Shown piece by piece: positions 3,334 to 41,130 of a stretch of DNA of 42,200 bases. The notes below the pieces were generated by a model, which ran no database searches, was not told the DNA's origin, and was given only the letters and a program-made list of their open reading frames with translations. The position numbers and the translations under genes are program-made. The number at the start of each line of letters is the position of its first letter. Positions within the stretch are counted from its first letter, which is position 1. Source of the stretch: a virus (Duplodnaviria; Heunggongvirae; Uroviricota; Caudoviricetes); IMG/VR virus record IMGVR_UViG_2522572164_000007, one strand, 5' to 3'.

Positions 3334-4071
3334 TCATTCACTCTCTTTCAAACCAGTTTTAACTGTTTGTGGTTTTGGGTAAGGGTGGACTTTGAATAGC
3401 TTTGTGTTGAGGCGTTTTCTGGCCCTCTTGTTCAGAAACCGGATGTAACGAAACTGTCGGAACTTATGCACACTGGCTCTGTCGATATTAGCCCTCAGAT
3501 GTTCACCTCGTTGTCCGCCTCGTTTAATGGCACTCCTGCAAATCTCGTGATACCACTCGCCATCAAGTTCATAGAATGTTGATTCATGGCTGCCTACATA
3601 ATCAAAATTGCTGGCCTGATACACGACACCAAGACAGCCACAACGCTCATCTGCAAACGACTGAACCCACTGTACCTGCGGATAAAGCTGCCTGATTAGC
3701 TTGAGCGCGTAACTGATTGCCCTTGATTCGGAGTTTCTCGGCATACAGTCATGCATCCATAGCCGGTTAAGCTCCATATATTCTCGGTTCTGCGTACCCG
3801 TTACGACGCGTGCACCACTGTTTGGGTTAAGGGCGTAACCCCATTGCATTACGCCAACAAGTTCCCGTTCTGAAAATATACCCAGATGAAGGTAGGAATT
3901 ATTTACGAAACGGTGGCTGTAATGTTTATTGACGATAACCAGTCTGGCCAGCCAGCAACTTATTGTCTCAACCCGCAACTCACGGGAGCCATAACCAACG
4001 ATATTGTCGTTATAGCGAATAAGTTCAGGCGTGCTGATGATACGGGATGTGACTTGCTTTCTGTTCCCCAC
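3334..4071 (-). CDS. mom: Mom-like DNA modification protein
   Basis: 245-aa ORF immediately downstream of, and overlapping, a Com-like zinc-finger gene at the far end of a Mu-like genome; size fits Mu Mom (about 230 aa). Start codon uncertain. Confidence 0.6.
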
Positions 4072-4225
4072 GACAGGATTTCCTTGTGTATGTGGGGTGC
4101 TCTGTGGCGCTCGGAGATGTGATTTGATTGAGGGTTTTACAGCGCGGACATTTTACTTCCAGATAACTGAAACTGGCCCGTGCCAGTAGCTTATTGCAGT
4201 GTCGGCACCGTATGTTTCGATACAT
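4025..4225 (-). CDS. com: Com-like zinc-finger translational activator of mom
   Basis: ORF 4025..4270 trimmed to the ATG at 4225 (GGAGG upstream). [30 protein letters not shown] resembles the Mu Com motif IRCKNCNKLL...CPRCK. Confidence 0.7.
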
Positions 4226-4261
4226 GGCCGCATAACCTCCTGCTTTGTTGTTGATGCCTTT

Positions 4262-4450
4262 CTCATGCAATCGATCGACAAAAACGATCGATTCGATTTG
4301 TTTAATTGATACAACAAATAGATTTAAAAGTCATCAACAATGATTCAGGGCGGTGATTATTTACTTAAAGAAACGAAGAGTTAGGTGGTGAAAACGATCA
4401 TAAAATGATCATTTTATTGACTTTTTATACAGTGAAGGTAGGATCGCGCG
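4262..4450 (-). promoter_or_regulatory. com-mom upstream regulatory region with clustered GATC (Dam) sites
   Basis: GATC at 4273, 4286, 4396, 4407 and 4442 (five in under 190 bp), directly upstream of com. Mu Pmom is known to be controlled by Dam methylation of upstream GATC sites that affects OxyR binding. Confidence 0.45.
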
Positions 4451-4497
4451 TATATGTAGTATGTTTCAAATCAACAGGATACTACATAAAAGTGAAA

Positions 4498-4523
4498 CCC
4501 AGCATAGCTGGAACTATGCTGGG
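4498..4523 (-). terminator. Candidate rho-independent terminator on the minus strand, upstream of the com-mom promoter
   Basis: Perfect 10-bp stem CCCAGCATAG / CTATGCTGGG with a 6-nt loop; on the minus strand it is followed by UUUCACUUUUAU. Confidence 0.4.
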
Positions 4524-4631
4524 TCAATCTGTAAAAACTTGCATCAATGCTTTACTTCGAGCTCGTGGCGTATCCTATGATATTCCCCGGTCTCCTGTAA
4601 AGCAGAGATGCATAAAAAGGAGATCTTTATC

Positions 4632-4802
4632 ATGGATAAAGAGCCTGTTTGCCCTGCCTGTAAGACTCCCTTACAGCTCATCTATCGCCGTTCTCGATCT
4701 CAAAATGGCAAGACATACAAACCAAAAAATGCTTCCTGTTTCAGGATGCTGATATGTCCTGCCTGTTCTCCCCGGAGGGAAAATACACAAAACGTGCATT
4801 AA
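4632..4802 (+). CDS. Small zinc-ribbon protein (CPxC...CPxC)
   Basis: ORF 4608..4802 trimmed to the ATG at 4632 with an AAGGAG RBS; MDKEPVCPACKTPLQLIYRRS...ICPACS; convergent with the 81-aa minus-strand gene. Confidence 0.45.
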   Translation: MDKEPVCPACKTPLQLIYRRSRSQNGKTYKPKNASCFRMLICPACSPRRENTQNVH

Positions 4803-4811
4803 CAAATTCAC

Positions 4812-4831
4812 CCGGCAGGGAAACCTGCCGG
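4812..4831. terminator. Bidirectional hairpin terminator between convergent genes
   Basis: CCGGCAGG-GAAA-CCTGCCGG (8-bp GC-rich stem, tetraloop) between the stop at 4802 (+) and the stop at 4841 (-); T-rich runs on both sides. Confidence 0.5.
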
Positions 4832-4840
4832 TCGGTATTG

Positions 4841-5086
4841 TTACATCATAGTACCGTCAGTTCCGGGCTGAACCGGCTCTGGTTGCTCTACGGGTTGAGG
4901 CTCATTTTCCGTGCTGTTTTCAGCCGGAGAACGACCAACCATTCGGGCCAGCACTTCATCAACATATGCGTCGATTTGTGCCTCAAAATCCTTGCGAACC
5001 TGCGCCTTCAGCACGCGGTTCACTTCTTCAGAATAAAGTGCCTGTTTGACAAGCTCTTCAGTAACCGTGCCTTTAATCTCTGGCAT
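4841..5086 (-). CDS. Hypothetical small acidic protein (81 aa)
   Basis: ATG at 5086 preceded by GGAGA; acidic, Pro/Glu-rich C-terminus; no family recognised. Confidence 0.5.
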   Translation of the reverse strand: MPEIKGTVTEELVKQALYSEEVNRVLKAQVRKDFEAQIDAYVDEVLARMVGRSPAENSTENEPQPVEQPEPVQPGTDGTMM

Positions 5087-5121: not shown

Positions 5122-5301
5122 TTAAATCTGACCGGAGTCTTTCGGCTGCGGCATTACAGCACCGCTTTTTATCTTTTCCTCGGCAGCTGCATCAATTTTA
5201 TTTCGAAAATAATTGCGAATAATTTTATAACCACCGCTGACAAGCAACAGACAACAAACCACCGTGCAGAAATACAGCAGGCAGACGTTTATATATGTCA
5301 T
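5122..5301 (-). CDS. Hypothetical small membrane protein (59 aa; below the ORF-track size cutoff)
   Basis: My own translation of the reverse complement from ATG 5301 to TAA 5122: MTYINVCLLYFCTVVCCLLLVSGGYKIIRNYFRNK...; one hydrophobic helix; GAGG upstream; sits between the esterase and the 81-aa gene. Confidence 0.3.
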   Translation of the reverse strand: MTYINVCLLYFCTVVCCLLLVSGGYKIIRNYFRNKIDAAAEEKIKSGAVMPQPKDSGQI

Positions 5302-5358: not shown

Positions 5359-7416
5359 TTATGCCGCAGGGGTATTAACCTCAAGGACAACGCTCTCAAA
5401 AGACACGCCATAAGTTGCCCCTTTGGTGACATCTGTCAGTGTCAGCGTATCTTTGGCAGGGGAAAGTGCATCTTTCACCATCTGGAATGCCTGGCCCGGA
5501 GTGCCATCCAGCACAGGCGTTACCTGGGCACTTCCCGCCGTAAACTTCAGGACAAGTGTATGCCACTGGTTATTGTAGGCTCCAAATGATCCCAGTTTCG
5601 TATTCCCCCCTGTTTTATGGTGCATCAGATTTAACTGGCCGCCTGTTGTCTGGAGATAATACGCCATCAGGAACGGTGTGCCTGTACCACTCATGGTTAC
5701 ACCTTCCGGGACCGTATCGGTGTGGAGGTAAATACCCAGAGCAAACTGGCCTTCTTTTACTTCACCTGACAGACGGAATTTACAGGTCAACTGACCACCA
5801 TGCTTCAGAAGTTCACCGGCTGCATCAGTTCCATGGGTAAGCGTCCAGGTTTTTCCGCTTTGTTTGGATACGGTCAACGCTTTACCTTCGTCCGTCAGCT
5901 GGATTGTACCATCTGTAATTTTCCAGCCCTGAGCCGGGGCTTCTCCTGCTGATGCTTTAAGTGAAAGCAGCGTACGGAGTGACGGGGATGTCGGATGGGG
6001 GGACTCACTGCCTCCTGGCTGACTACCTGTCGGCGCTTCCGGTTTCCCACCCGGCGCGGGCTGAGGCAGGGCTTCACCATCAGGGGCCACACCGGCAATA
6101 AATGCAGAGGTCAGACCTGCATATTTAAGAATTGCTGATGCAAAACGATCTGAGACCAGAAAACGGCGCGCCCAGGAGCTAAAATGGGTTGCCCTGGATG
6201 CTGTTGTCCAGTTGCCATCTCCCCGTGATTCCGCACCATAATACCCGGCAGAAGCGATATCCGGGTCGTGCTCCGGCAGGTTGGTCGCGGTTTTATTACC
6301 GAACTCATCGTGCATCAGTGGAACAAAGTGAATGTTCTCGGAAGCCCGGTTTTTATATCCGCTATAAATGGTTTCATATGCCGCCGGGTTCTTCTCTTTC
6401 CAGTCATAGGTTGTGTCACCACATAACCACGGCACACTGTCTGATGAACCACCAATACACTGACCGGAGAAAGCACCAAGATCCGCACGGAATTTTTTCA
6501 CCATCGCAGTAAACTGGGCACCATGCTGGGCCGGGGTCGCTTTAAGGTCTCCTTCCCCCTGAATCCATACGACAGATAACAGCACATTCTTTGGATTCGC
6601 CTCAAGTGCCGCTTTAGTTCGACTGACAAGATCCTGATACAGTGGGGTATCCACTCCCCAGCGTAGTGACGCCTCGGCTGCACCACTTGCCGGATCGAAT
6701 GAGCCAACTGCGCCGGTTGTAAAAGCAGAGCCGCCACGGGCACAGGGAACCAGTAAAATCCCGGCATCAGCAGGAATCACCGGTAATACTTTTTTCGCAA
6801 TATGAAGTCCCTGCCCCACACAACCATACTGCCCTTTTTTCAGGTCTGCTTTTGGATGGTTCAGCAGACTCATATTCTGAACATCATGAAGGCAGTGATC
6901 TGCTGGAATGATTTCATTGTATTTGCAGGGAATACCTCCGGGGGTTTGTGTATTCCTGCGTGCCAGCTGCATAATACGTGGATCAGGACGATCATAAGAA
7001 TCCGGAAGGGGCAACCCTTCACCATAAGATGAAGCATTGGACTGGCCGGCTATAACAATCACGTAATACCAGGAAGGGGAGCTGGAAGCCGTTTCATTTC
7101 CTGCCGGACGGGTATGTGTTTCTGCATTATCCCAGTCTGACGGTTCAGCAGTACCGGCAACATCAGCACTTAACGGAATGACAGCACCAATACCCGCTCC
7201 GGTAATTTCCACGTTCGGATCACCGGATACTGGCCTTACCCACAGGCAATCCTGTGTATTAAAACTGATGAGACAGTCAGCAAATGTCATTCCTCCTTTC
7301 GTTTCAGCAGGAGGAAAGGGAGCCTCAAGAAATGCCGCTGTACCACCGGAAACTTTAACGGTAAAGTTTCCGGGCATTGATGATAGTTGAACCCATTTGG
7401 ACGTCATAATATTCAT
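5359..7416 (-). CDS. Sialate O-acetylesterase, NanS-p-like (SGNH hydrolase) with extra N- and C-terminal domains
   Basis: 685-aa ORF with YVIVIAGQSNASSYGEG (GQSN block of SGNH esterases); overall architecture resembles the prophage NanS-p esterases of enterohaemorrhagic E. coli. Confidence 0.7.
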   Translation of the reverse strand: MNIMTSKWVQLSSMPGNFTVKVSGGTAAFLEAPFPPAETKGGMTFADCLISFNTQDCLWVRPVSGDPNVEITGAGIGAVIPLSADVAGTAEPSDWDNAETHTRPAGNETASSSPSWYYVIVIAGQSNASSYGEGLPLPDSYDRPDPRIMQLARRNTQTPGGIPCKYNEIIPADHCLHDVQNMSLLNHPKADLKKGQYGCVGQGLHIAKKVLPVIPADAGILLVPCARGGSAFTTGAVGSFDPASGAAEASLRWGVDTPLYQDLVSRTKAALEANPKNVLLSVVWIQGEGDLKATPAQHGAQFTAMVKKFRADLGAFSGQCIGGSSDSVPWLCGDTTYDWKEKNPAAYETIYSGYKNRASENIHFVPLMHDEFGNKTATNLPEHDPDIASAGYYGAESRGDGNWTTASRATHFSSWARRFLVSDRFASAILKYAGLTSAFIAGVAPDGEALPQPAPGGKPEAPTGSQPGGSESPHPTSPSLRTLLSLKASAGEAPAQGWKITDGTIQLTDEGKALTVSKQSGKTWTLTHGTDAAGELLKHGGQLTCKFRLSGEVKEGQFALGIYLHTDTVPEGVTMSGTGTPFLMAYYLQTTGGQLNLMHHKTGGNTKLGSFGAYNNQWHTLVLKFTAGSAQVTPVLDGTPGQAFQMVKDALSPAKDTLTLTDVTKGATYGVSFESVVLEVNTPAA

Positions 7417-7506
7417 CCTGTTCCTGAATAAACAGAATTATCATATCCACAGACCGATAAACGCCATTTTGCGTTAATTCAGTAAAGGCCCAACAAAGGG
7501 AGCGTC

Positions 7507-8067
7507 TTATTTTTCCGAAACGCTCGCAGGATAATAACGATAAAGGGTTGAAAGGCCGATATCAAAAATAAGTGCCACCTGTCTTCGACTGACACCCCCG
7601 GCCAGTAAACGCCCGACCTGCTCGTATTGTTCCTGCGTGAGACGACGGGGTCTGCCGCCGGTTCGTCCCCTTTCACGGGCAGCTGCAAGACCAGCCCGTG
7701 TCCGTTCGACAATTAATTCACGCTCCATTTCTGCCAGCGCACCCATTATGTGAAAAAAGAAGCGCCCCATGGGGGTTGACGTATCAATGTTGTCAGTAAG
7801 ACTACGAAAATTTATCCCCTGTTGCTGTAATTCATCTGTCAGCGCAACAAGGTGGCGCATACTGCGCCCCAGCCTGTCCAGTTTCCAGACCATCAGTGTG
7901 TCACCGGGTTTTAGTTTCTTCAGTGCCCGCTTCAGTCCCGGCCGCTGTGTCGTTTTACCACTCATTTTATCTTCAAAAATCTGCTCACATCCTGCACATT
8001 CCAGCGCATTTCTTTGTAAACCTGTGTTCTGGTCATTTGTTGATACGCGTATATAGCCAATCAGCAT
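7507..8067 (-). CDS. gin: Serine recombinase, DNA invertase Gin/Hin/Pin/Cin family
   Basis: 186 aa; MLIGYIRVSTNDQNTGLQRNAL... is the resolvase/invertase catalytic N-terminus, with a C-terminal HTH (GRPRRL...STLYRY). Confidence 0.9.
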   Translation of the reverse strand: MLIGYIRVSTNDQNTGLQRNALECAGCEQIFEDKMSGKTTQRPGLKRALKKLKPGDTLMVWKLDRLGRSMRHLVALTDELQQQGINFRSLTDNIDTSTPMGRFFFHIMGALAEMERELIVERTRAGLAAARERGRTGGRPRRLTQEQYEQVGRLLAGGVSRRQVALIFDIGLSTLYRYYPASVSEK

Positions 8068-24080: not shown

Positions 24081-24201
24081 ATTGCCTCCGCATAAAGGAT
24101 GAATATAAAATAAACAGGCGGTCAGTGTACGCTTAACTGGTAAAGTCGGTGCCTGCCTCCGGGTGGATCATGTATGCGGGTTCAACCCCCGCCACTGACC
24201 G

Positions 24202-39039: not shown

Positions 39040-41130
39040 TCAGGCCAGAGGGTCATTTTCTTTTAATTTCGCTTCGAGCAACTGCAATCCCCGCTGGAAA
39101 TTACGCTCGTATTCTTCATCAGGCTCATCATCAACGGCAGGTTGCTGAACGGTCACCGTATTACCCACAGGGCGGTATATGTTTTCCAGCCAGGGCTCCT
39201 GCGGCTTGTGCTCCAGCACGTTGACAACCTCATCCTCGGCATCACGGATTTTTTCCTCTGCGCGTTTACGCATACCTTTAAGGCGTTGCTGCTGTTTGTA
39301 GTATTCCGCGCTGACCGGGAAGGCTTCGCGTTTATTGCCGTCCCATACCGCCTCGCAAATCACGCTGCCATCCGGGCGACGTACGGTAATTCGTTCGGCA
39401 TCATGAATGTCATAGCTGATAAGCACCTTGCGGCCATGCTCATCACTCAGCTCGGGCGCGTAGTAAATATTATTCAGCCAGCGTATTTCACAGCGTCTTA
39501 CAGGGCGTTCCACCATTGGCCGGAACATATCCCGCAGCTCAACATCGGACAGCCATTCAATTTCCGTGTCCTCTTCTGCCAGGCGTTTTTTTCTGAACTC
39601 CGCCGGGCTGTAATGCTTCCCGTTCGGCTTCATGGGTAATTCATCGTGCGGCCGGTTGTTGTACCACTCAACGCCATCACGAATGGCATCAATCAGTTCA
39701 GACCAGGACGGTAAATCACGCATCGCTGACTGTTGCCGGGCGTTCAGCCGTTTGCCCTGTTGCAGGGCGGTAAATGCCGAGCGTAAATCGCGGTTGGTTT
39801 TGCGTAACGTCTCGCGATCTGCACCTTTCCCGAAATAGGTGCGGTATTTACGGGCTATGCGCATCGGTAATGTGCGGTTAAGCCGTTCGATAATGCCTCG
39901 CCCCTGCGGATTACCGGCAATCCCGGTCGGGTGATTAATCCCCAGTCGCGGCAGTATCCCCACAACCTCCTTATCCAGGACGTCGGCGGTTTCCCCGGAG
40001 CCGTTATCCGAGTAATACAGAAACGGTTTGCCGTGATGGCGAATGCCGTGCTGTATGGCACCGGCTACGGCGAAAACATTTTCAGCCAGGTCAAGGCTCC
40101 AGCCCACCACAAAGCGCGTGCCACCGTCGATAACAAAGGTCACTTCCGGTGCAAATGGCCGACCGTGAACCGGGTGTGCGCATTTCAGCTTCATGCCGTG
40201 ACCGTCACCAATCCAGACATAATTCACCGGCATTCTGGACCAGTCGCGGCGCGTGAATCCCTCAAGCTGGCGGTATTCACTGCCGGTCACCCGGCCTTTT
40301 TGTTTCACCACTTCCGGCAGTTTCTTCATTGCGCGGCGGATGGTGTCGTAAGACGGCATGATATCGAGCATATAAGGCTCATCAGCGTGCCGGTGCTGCC
40401 ATTCAGCGACAAAATCCTCGTAAGCCTCGGTCATTGGTCGGCCGTTTGACTGGCGATACTGCGCCAGAAATTCGGGCAGCCAGTTAATATCTTCGGCTTT
40501 TATTTCCTGGCGCTTACCAGGTGCCAGCAAAAGCAGGCGTTCAGCGGCGTTCTGCGCCTTGTTAAAGGCTGCAATCCAGCGTTTCAGCGTGATTTCACTC
40601 AACGCACGGCTGTTTCCCTTTTTGGCGTTCGCCGTCTCAACCATTGCCACAATGCGCTCGTCCAGTTGCGAACGTGCCAGGTTGTCAACGATAAACCGGA
40701 TAGCCTTCGCACAGCTGAAACCAGGTTGTTGCGCGACTTTCAGAACTTCGCTGACGATCGCGATTCGTGCATCAGCCACCTGGCGCTGGTTTTCAGTCAG
40801 GGCATTGAGGCGTTCAACCATCAGTTGTGGTGATCCGCGATATGCCTCCACCGCATCAACCACGGCAGGCGAGCGTCTGGCCTTTGTCACCACCGGAGCC
40901 GGTGATTCATCAGCTTTTTGCGTCATCAGTTGAAGGGCATAACGTTCACGCAATACTTGTTGCGCGCCAGAAGGCAAACAATCGATATTAAATTCGATTG
41001 CTTTTGTCCCCTTACGTTTGCGTAACATGGCTGCATTTCCCGCAGCTGCTTTTGTGAGTCGATGGCGAATGTTATGTTCCATCATTGGTAAATCAGGAAG
41101 ACCAACACATTCTTTTGCTGTTACCCACAT
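39040..41130 (-). CDS. A: MuA-like DDE transposase
   Basis: 696-aa ORF; size and position between ner and B. Confidence 0.85.
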   Translation of the reverse strand: MWVTAKECVGLPDLPMMEHNIRHRLTKAAAGNAAMLRKRKGTKAIEFNIDCLPSGAQQVLRERYALQLMTQKADESPAPVVTKARRSPAVVDAVEAYRGSPQLMVERLNALTENQRQVADARIAIVSEVLKVAQQPGFSCAKAIRFIVDNLARSQLDERIVAMVETANAKKGNSRALSEITLKRWIAAFNKAQNAAERLLLLAPGKRQEIKAEDINWLPEFLAQYRQSNGRPMTEAYEDFVAEWQHRHADEPYMLDIMPSYDTIRRAMKKLPEVVKQKGRVTGSEYRQLEGFTRRDWSRMPVNYVWIGDGHGMKLKCAHPVHGRPFAPEVTFVIDGGTRFVVGWSLDLAENVFAVAGAIQHGIRHHGKPFLYYSDNGSGETADVLDKEVVGILPRLGINHPTGIAGNPQGRGIIERLNRTLPMRIARKYRTYFGKGADRETLRKTNRDLRSAFTALQQGKRLNARQQSAMRDLPSWSELIDAIRDGVEWYNNRPHDELPMKPNGKHYSPAEFRKKRLAEEDTEIEWLSDVELRDMFRPMVERPVRRCEIRWLNNIYYAPELSDEHGRKVLISYDIHDAERITVRRPDGSVICEAVWDGNKREAFPVSAEYYKQQQRLKGMRKRAEEKIRDAEDEVVNVLEHKPQEPWLENIYRPVGNTVTVQQPAVDDEPDEEYERNFQRGLQLLEAKLKENDPLA

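Follow-up and report, generated by a model that had tools for sequence, protein, structure and literature searches.

A NanS-p-like esterase of Mu-like prophages carries a different N-terminal module and may be tethered to the virion

The IMG/VR record IMGVR_UViG_2522572164_000007 (Caudoviricetes), a stretch of 42,200 nucleotides here called the window, holds a Mu-like prophage with a gene for a 685-amino-acid (aa) protein between the DNA invertase gene gin and com. The protein has three parts: an N-terminal module of about 80 aa, a central esterase of the NanS type and a C-terminal lectin-like domain. We see an even chance that this three-part phage enzyme is a late-expressed, virion-tethered sialate O-acetylesterase, and the gene is probably a standing, late-expressed component of Mu-like phages of the Sp18 type. 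The open reading frame (ORF) lies at 5359–7416 on the minus strand, starts with ATG and carries WYYVIVIAGQSNASSYGEG at aa 116–134, with the GQSN serine at position 126. This is as described in the original prediction, which had been made from the letters alone and had read the gene as a NanS-p-like moron at a site where phage Mu has nothing. In Mu, the distance from the gin stop to the com start is just 94 bp, and the window phage thus has about 3.2 kb extra at the gin–com junction.

Catalytic and lectin domains

The gene and the segments of its product are as follows.

5359–7416, minus strand: esterase gene, 685 aa (ORF, Pfam, phmmer)
7168–7416, minus strand: N-terminal module, aa 1–83, an all-beta, cupin-like small barrel with a weak phrog_4772 match and no Pfam family, at the place of DUF1737 in NanS-p
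7069–7167, minus strand: linker 1, aa 84–116, Pro/Ser/Thr-rich, ending ...ASSSPSW; predicted local distance difference test score (pLDDT) below 50 from aa 85
6121–7068, minus strand: NanS-like SGNH/SASA catalytic domain, aa 117–432 (Pfam, phmmer, sequence blocks)
5977–6120, minus strand: linker 2, aa 433–480, Pro-rich, unconserved between alleles (9% identity)
5371–5976, minus strand: C-terminal lectin-like jelly-roll domain (DUF6645), aa 481–682 (Pfam, phmmer)

An alternative start, Met4, is located at 7407, where the homologues of prophages Sp18 and Mu_JNE082796 begin.

The protein search that the original prediction had proposed returned a SASA esterase with the catalytic Ser and His intact and a NanS-p lectin domain. 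Pfam placed SASA at aa 119–315 and DUF6645 at aa 537–647 (E = 8e-26), both above gathering scores. When the protein was compared with PDB sequences using phmmer, aa 108–432 matched E. coli NanS/YjhS (3PT5) with E = 3.7e-110, and aa 481–682 matched the crystallised NanS-p C-terminal domain (6YP6) with E = 9.7e-42. The blocks given for 3PT5 are GQSNA, RGGSAF, MQGEFD and R-x-SHFS (PMC10792757). The four SGNH blocks of the window protein correspond to these, namely GQSNA at 124–128 (with Ser126), RGGSAF at 227–232, QGEGD at 286–290 and RATHFS at 408–413 (with His411). Across four diverged homologues there is no variation in these blocks or in the catalytic residues Ser126 and His411. Because the four blocks and both catalytic residues are present on alignment, the earlier assignment to the SGNH enzymes stands. 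Of four proposed binding aromatics in the lectin domain, Y515 and Y540 are kept, the position of Y510 is taken by Phe and that of F611 falls in an alignment gap. A single-sequence AlphaFold model of the whole protein was unusable (mean pLDDT 32).

The protein can thus be soundly assigned to the NanS/NanS-p-type SGNH (SASA) esterases with a NanS-p lectin-like C-terminus, with its activity predicted from characterised relatives. Among these, the NanS-p proteins of EDL933 and O104:H4 are active esterases on 5-N-acetyl-9-O-acetylneuraminic acid (Neu5,9Ac2) (PMC8065619). By analogy with the characterised homologues, the substrate is most likely the O-acetyl groups of sialic acids (Neu5,9Ac2 and related mucin glycans). 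The domains of a 752-aa relative (P0062) are DUF1737, SASA, phage tail Collar (PF07484) and DUF6645, an architecture that hints at esterases built into tail-fibre-like proteins.

The N-terminal module and its partners in other phages

The window protein aligns with NanS-p of Shiga toxin (Stx) phages only from about residue 110. DUF1737 (PF08410) was detected in the Stx2a-phage protein with E = 4e-18, and neither in the window protein nor in a second Mu-borne allele even at E ≤ 1. Structure prediction modelled aa 1–83 as an all-beta barrel. On this fold and profile evidence, a diverged DUF1737 was ruled out; in the Mu-borne protein, an all-beta module of about 80 aa, unrelated to DUF1737, has taken its place. 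The description as NanS-p-like therefore fits the catalytic and lectin domains and not the full protein, of which the first ~116 aa are not NanS-p-like. By the same token, the Mu-like phage is indeed a carrier of such an enzyme, as had been suggested, but not simply of NanS-p in a new vehicle, since the N-terminal domain differs.

The window module matches phrog_4772 with E = 0.0019, and Salmonella members of this family do so with 2e-18 and 9e-15. Fused and stand-alone modules matched each other in hhalign (86.8%, E = 4e-6). With moderate confidence, we regard the module as a probable homologue of the phrog_4772 family of ORFs of about 78 aa. A word-indexed search with the module alone returned near-identical fragments only, and two scans of species-representative genomes did not find it. 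An exhaustive phmmer search gave five matches; one of them, a 1445-aa protein matched in nine stretches (P0008), was judged a low-complexity repeat artefact and rejected.

By phmmer and profile search, the module was found fused to the start of esterases in Mu-like prophages of E. coli, Shigella sonnei and Salmonella, with 28–59% module identity. Many Salmonella genomes carry it as a separate ORF of 77–80 aa that matches phrog_4772. Weak matches occur in ~158 large phage genomes, of which the two that were opened (LIMEstone1 and UPM 2146) belong to the Ackermannviridae.

The gene order around these modules is telling of their company. One Salmonella Mu-like prophage (L005) has a Mu-type baseplate, an invertible fibre segment, an invertase gene, two small ORFs and then the module-esterase gene. 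Another (L018) runs from a Mu-type baseplate through fibre and chaperone genes to a 784-aa module-esterase-lectin protein, DUF1353, com and a C5 methyltransferase. In a third locus (L019), the module is a separate ORF, its start overlapping the stop of a tail-fibre assembly (chaperone) gene and its end being TAA, and the esterase ORF follows directly downstream with its own AGGGAG ribosome-binding site. P2-like prophages have the order fibre, invertase, module ORF, ILEI-domain protein and DUF1353, and another myovirus has fibre, chaperone, module ORF, a 332-aa protein, a tail-fibre-chaperone-like gene and DUF1353. In Dickeya phage LIMEstone1, a putative late promoter is followed by ORF168, ORF169 and a terminator. 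ORF168 is homologous to the module (hhalign 95.2%, E = 2.5e-8), and ORF169 is an Sf6-type tail-needle knob (PF16532) annotated as 'confirmed structural protein'. No homology was found between the ILEI protein of the P2-like locus L022 and ORF169, and conservation of the two-gene cassette is therefore limited to its first gene. Across these loci the module stays and its partner changes, with neighbours that are tail-related and glycan-related, and the place of the module-esterase gene is in every case the end of the tail-fibre region. The existence of both fused and adjacent-gene forms argues for a functional link between module and partner.

Two further features of these loci were observed. 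In three Salmonella prophage types, the module-partner unit ends with a DUF1353 gene (phrog_1158, 'tail assembly chaperone'; L018 12467–12859, L022 9802–10179, L026 11014–11391), where the E. coli phages have DUF1378 and DUF826. In the Salmonella Mu-like element L018 (13628–14837), com is kept and a gene for a C5 cytosine DNA methyltransferase stands in place of mom, its start overlapping the end of com, and E. coli SW070917 (H186) has the same pairing of com with a cytosine methyltransferase. This suggests that, in the L018 element, translational control of the Com type has passed to another enzyme of DNA modification.

A precedent for a particle-bound NanS-p exists in phage phi24B, whose NanS-p, gp84, decorates the capsid and is attached to it by its DUF1737 domain (bioRxiv 10.64898/2026.04.10.717836). 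Because of this precedent and of the module's genomic company, we propose that the Mu-borne enzyme is tethered to the virion. The N-terminal module, native to contractile-tailed phages, would serve as a docking adaptor, by which the Mu-like particle or a partner bound to it would hold the enzyme. The central NanS-type SGNH esterase would free sialic acids of their O-acetyl groups, and the C-terminal lectin-like domain would target the enzyme to glycans. Virions would then carry both glycan-trimming and glycan-binding activity. A virion-associated enzyme had been raised earlier as an alternative to lysogenic conversion; given the phi24B precedent and the module's distribution, it is now at least as likely.

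The same module might instead belong to a soluble enzyme, produced late and released by lysis as a public good that deacetylates mucin sialic acids, on which surviving kin lysogens could then grow. This is the role proposed for lambdoid NanS-p, and the module would then be an oligomerisation domain or an extra glycan-binding domain. We consider such a soluble enzyme rather unlikely. It leaves unexplained why the N-terminal domain differs by phage type, with DUF1737 in lambdoid phages and the module in myoviruses, and why the module lies beside a confirmed virion tail-needle knob and, with other partners, near tail-fibre genes. Moreover, the lambdoid prototype itself proved to be structural.

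A broader form of the virion-tethering proposal is more tentative, and we would sooner doubt than accept it. The N-termini of phage NanS-p-type proteins may be interchangeable adaptors matched to the particle, DUF1737 fitting the capsids of lambdoid phages and the cupin-like phrog_4772 module fitting the particles of Mu-like, P2-like and Ackermannviridae myoviruses. phrog_4772 would then be a general handle for glycan-directed cargo (esterase plus lectin, ILEI, tail-needle knob, the 332-aa protein), and sialate esterases would be virion equipment across three morphotypes and not lysogen metabolism genes.

Locus, distribution and expression signals

The surroundings of the esterase gene contain the following features.

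7507–8067, minus strand: Gin-type DNA invertase gene, the upstream neighbour (Pfam Resolvase, E = 1e-51; phrog 'DNA invertase')
7440–7473, minus strand: late-promoter-like motif CGCAAAA-N20-ATATGAT in the 90-bp gin–esterase spacer, resembling elements of the lysis and protease genes
5122–5301, minus strand: DUF1378 gene, 59 aa, hydrophobic N-terminus; follows nanS-p in Stx phages also
4841–5086, minus strand: DUF826 gene, 81 aa, third of the block; likewise in Stx phages
4812–4831, minus strand: GC-rich hairpin with an 8-bp stem and a 4-nt loop just past the DUF826 stop, a possible terminator read from the sequence and unflagged by the terminator scan
4496–4525, minus strand: terminator-like hairpin (13 pairs) with a T-rich run behind it, within the 570 bp that separate DUF826 from com (terminator scan)
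4025–4270 (as listed), minus strand: com, downstream neighbour (Zn_ribbon_Com)
3334–4071, minus strand: mom, downstream neighbour (Pfam Mom, E = 8e-77)
3334–4270, minus strand: com and mom together, with two GATC sites just upstream at 4273–4289, as in the mom control region of Mu

The invertase, esterase, com and mom genes all lie on the minus strand. The esterase, DUF1378 and DUF826 genes form a three-gene, 3.2-kb unit between the invertase gene and com; the original prediction had found the esterase gene and overlooked the other two. The GC-content of the block is ~0.52, compared with 0.44–0.48 in its neighbours and 0.55–0.60 in the morphogenesis genes. The GATC-containing control region upstream of com is intact and Mu-like, and Mom shares 78.6% identity with its Mu counterpart. 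On the plus strand, in the interval from DUF826 to com, two ORFs that overlap each other (4405–4802) correspond to a RefSeq 'hypothetical protein, frameshifted' in E. coli strain 48. Their counterpart is intact in Sakai (ECs_4996, ~154 aa), and one part shows a CxxC...CxxC zinc-ribbon-like pattern with only a sub-threshold Pfam match to Trm112p-like proteins.

The surrounding element is a Mu-like prophage. A copy with 99.8% identity in E. coli strain 48 is annotated with the Mu gpT head protein, a Mu-type tail, baseplate, transposase, Mor and Gam, and the annotation of near-identical copies lists a Mu-type transposase with B ATPase, Mor/C, gpT, gp45–48 baseplate proteins, an invertible fibre segment and com/mom. 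The flanks differ between the window and strain 48, indicating variable insertion sites. Comparison with the strain 48 copy, which sits at another insertion site, places the right end of the prophage at ~3205; the Mu right-end sequence itself was not found in the window. At the left end of the prophage, the window ends inside the repressor gene.

Genomes of this lineage measure 38.8–40.0 kb (Sp18, 38,759 bp; strain 48, ~39.1 kb; Mu_JNE082796, 39,968 bp), and that of Mu 36,717 bp. The excess over Mu is about the size of the esterase block. Mu packages its DNA by headful, so phages with these larger genomes must depart from Mu either in how much DNA the capsid takes or in how long the host-DNA tail is. 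Sp18 was nevertheless predicted to be intact, and its DNA is reported to be packaged efficiently (PMC2669165), which marks the phage as functional.

Some observations concern the prophage copies themselves. In strain 48 (NZ_CP166879.1; L001 and L029), unrelated truncated genes adjoin the prophage ends, a TerC-family gene on the left and a ferritin-like gene on the right, and the strain has four matching places. This suggests rearrangement between Mu-like copies in that strain. Across complete genomes, up to five Mu-like copies occur per genome, and two places are on plasmids. RefSeq lists a 'tRNA-OTHER' at 40795–40882 of L001 (about 24094–24181 of the window), between virion and head morphogenesis genes; ARAGORN found no tRNA anywhere in the window.

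To describe the distribution of the gene, complete E. coli genomes were surveyed. Module DNA is present in 205 of 5426 genomes (~4%) at 246 places, with up to four per genome, and in 40 of 40 sampled entries the module lies inside a coding sequence annotated as DUF6645 or sialate esterase. The mom/com end of the lineage was found at 295 places in 233 complete E. coli genomes, which means that at least 246 of 295 copies of the Sp18-type lineage (at least 83%) carry the module-esterase gene. Strain M1, one of the 'missing' cases, has another module variant fused to an esterase, without an invertase gene. The window allele extends across the whole region in 38 genomes only. Many carriers are E. 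coli that make Shiga toxin (STEC), from cattle and humans (O157:H7, O111, O121, O91, O103), a share affected by bias in the genome collection. Diverged module-esterases hold the same position in Mu-like prophages of Shigella and Salmonella, and some of these relatives have no invertase gene.

The copy in strain Sakai is ECs_4993 of prophage Sp18 (38,759 bp) and is annotated as 'hypothetical protein'. In the searchable literature, nanS-p is described in lambdoid/Stx prophages and never alongside 'Mu-like', and ECs4993 goes unmentioned; this agrees with the earlier statement that NanS-p is known mainly from lambdoid (Stx) prophages.

The alleles of the gene are mosaic. Compared with the window protein, the allele of the Sp18/Mu_JNE082796 type shows 95–100% identity over aa 1–120, 54–82% in the esterase domain and 36–46% in the lectin domain; at the lectin end, it shares up to 100% identity with the Stx2a-phage protein. 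In their DNA, the two Mu-like phages are ~97% identical in the flanks (invertase gene plus module on one side, DUF826 through com on the other) and not in the middle. The esterase-lectin part of the window protein forms its own 90% cluster of 535 member sequences and is at most ~63% identical to anything outside it; those relatives nearly all bear DUF1737. These sequences are most simply explained if homologous exchange has taken place repeatedly, within shared host cells, between lambdoid nanS-p paralogues and the Mu-borne gene. The module-esterase unit would be old in this phage group, and in E. coli its esterase part would have recombined with lambdoid nanS-p, bringing in DUF1378 and DUF826. 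A blastn search in 'distant' mode with the DUF1378/DUF826 region returned other Mu-like copies only and no Stx phage, so that family membership and gene order, and not DNA identity, are what point to a lambdoid origin of the two genes. Two records of 'Stx-converting phage' of ~93 kb (LC727881.1 and LC727895.1; L003) are Stx phages into which a 40-kb Mu-like phage of the Sp18-type lineage has been inserted, with the target duplication annotated. Since the Mu-like phage transposed into them, lambdoid-type and Mu-type esterase genes are both present there.

The high divergence of the lectin domain between alleles is what would be expected of a host-range determinant, and the gene adjoins host-range genes (the invertible tail-fibre segment). 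A virion-borne esterase could act on a bacterial substrate, taking O-acetyl groups off the target cell's O-antigen, capsule or colanic acid so that a receptor is exposed, as tailspike deacetylases do. Some E. coli O-antigens contain O-acetylated sialic acid, which counts for such a role. The possibility has also been raised for NanS-p in a review (PMC8065619). On location, this proposal overlaps with virion tethering as we favour it, and it differs only in substrate. We nevertheless hold it to be improbable, as Neu5,9Ac2 or mucin glycans are the substrates of every characterised relative and no allele has been linked to a bacterial glycan.

Expression signals were sought upstream of the esterase gene and elsewhere in the window. 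Sigma-70-like sites are no commoner than chance (6 found, 7.1 expected in shuffles). On the minus strand, near-identical copies of CCGCAAArCCyGCC-N15-TTAyGCT lie upstream of the lysis gene (31399–31364) and the head protease gene (23472–23437), and these elements are candidate late-activator-dependent promoters. The motif in the gin–esterase spacer resembles them. In Sp18, the motif upstream of the esterase gene is identical to that of the window. In M1 it reads TTCCGCAAAAC...TTATTCT, which is nearer to the consensus; what lies upstream differs there, and a terminator-like hairpin immediately precedes the motif. A related box occurs in the Salmonella locus L018 and none in L005. Judged by this motif, late, activator-dependent transcription of the esterase is the more likely mode, and the esterase, DUF1378 and DUF826 genes would be transcribed late together from a phage-type promoter. 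Separately, the region upstream of com has the second half of the head protease element (CCGCCCTGAA) in common with it.

The original prediction had called the gene a moron, and a classical moron would act by lysogenic conversion from the resting prophage, for example through read-through from a constitutive invertase gene, to give a metabolic advantage in the gut. Several features fit: the block separates genes that adjoin each other in Mu, its GC-content is unlike that of its neighbours and of the morphogenesis genes, and no terminator was detected between the invertase and esterase genes, with terminator-like hairpins past DUF826. However, the sporadic presence among similar phages that marks a moron was not found. 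Within the lineage the gene is close to fixation, and diverged relatives, including some without an invertase gene, keep it in synteny; sigma-70-like sites are at chance level and a conserved phage late-promoter-like motif lies upstream. In addition, lambdoid nanS-p rises on induction. The moron label therefore fits poorly, and we rate conversion from the resting prophage as highly improbable.

Two points temper the evidence for the gene as a late-expressed, virion-tethered component. The relaxed pattern CGCAAAr-N19-23-TAyG occurs three times on both strands of the 42.2 kb, upstream of the lysis, head protease and esterase genes, against a shuffle mean of 0.3, a statistic that is generous because the pattern was relaxed after the esterase-spacer sequence had been seen. 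The motif gains independent support from its conservation in Sp18 and M1. Furthermore, lambdoid genes carry no module, so the module could not be replaced by recombination with them, and the esterase mosaic alone is therefore no proof of selection on the module.

Comparison with known systems

The closest known systems are the NanS-p proteins of Stx and other lambdoid phages (933W L0105/z1466; phi24B gp84 = vb_24B_21). As in these, the window protein has a homologous SASA domain with the same variant blocks and a DUF6645 C-terminus, and its gene is phage-borne, followed by DUF1378 and then DUF826, and probably expressed late. An Stx2a phage has the order stx2AB, nanS-p (DUF1737, SASA and DUF6645), DUF1378, DUF826, holin and lysozyme; the window block lacks the lysis genes. 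The Mu-borne protein differs in its identity, which is 51% overall and at most ~63% to any DUF1737-bearing relative, and in its location, since its gene has the invertase gene and com of a transposable Mu-like myovirus on its two sides and not stx/Q and the holin gene. The chromosomal NanS (YjhS, 3PT5) is the best structural homologue of the catalytic domain. It is a single-domain protein with a crystallised chain of 337 aa, has neither N-terminal module nor lectin domain and is not phage-borne.

In its layout, the protein resembles phi24B gp84, with a small N-terminal domain, linker, esterase, linker and lectin domain, Ser/Pro-rich linkers and ...SSSP... before the catalytic domain. The anchor, however, is of a different fold and family, and the phi24B particle is a podovirus with a T=9 capsid, whereas here it is a Mu-type myovirus. 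With the phrog_4772 ORFs of Salmonella and ORF168 of LIMEstone1, the protein shares a module of ~78 aa at the end of a tail-fibre cluster or in a late two-gene unit, before a partner of the glycan-binding or tip type. Unlike the window protein, the small Salmonella ORFs and ORF168 are separate polypeptides with a non-esterase partner. The gin–com–mom region of Mu is kept in its invertase, com, mom and GATC control region; the 94-bp gap of Mu contrasts with the three-gene, 3.2-kb unit, and its genome of 36.7 kb with those of 38.8–40.0 kb.

NanS-p has been discussed as a factor associated with fitness and virulence of enterohaemorrhagic E. coli, and strains are compared by its copy number. Mu-like copies may be missing from such nanS-p counts because they are annotated as 'hypothetical' or 'DUF6645' and are absent alongside 'Mu-like' in the searchable literature. 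One enzyme core has a different N-terminus in lambdoid phages than in myoviruses, which supports the recently made claim that these esterases are particle components, and phrog_4772 is a concrete candidate for the adaptor. If virion tethering holds true, the display of mucus-glycan enzymes on virions would extend to transposable phages, and the module would offer a handle for engineering cargo onto myovirus particles.

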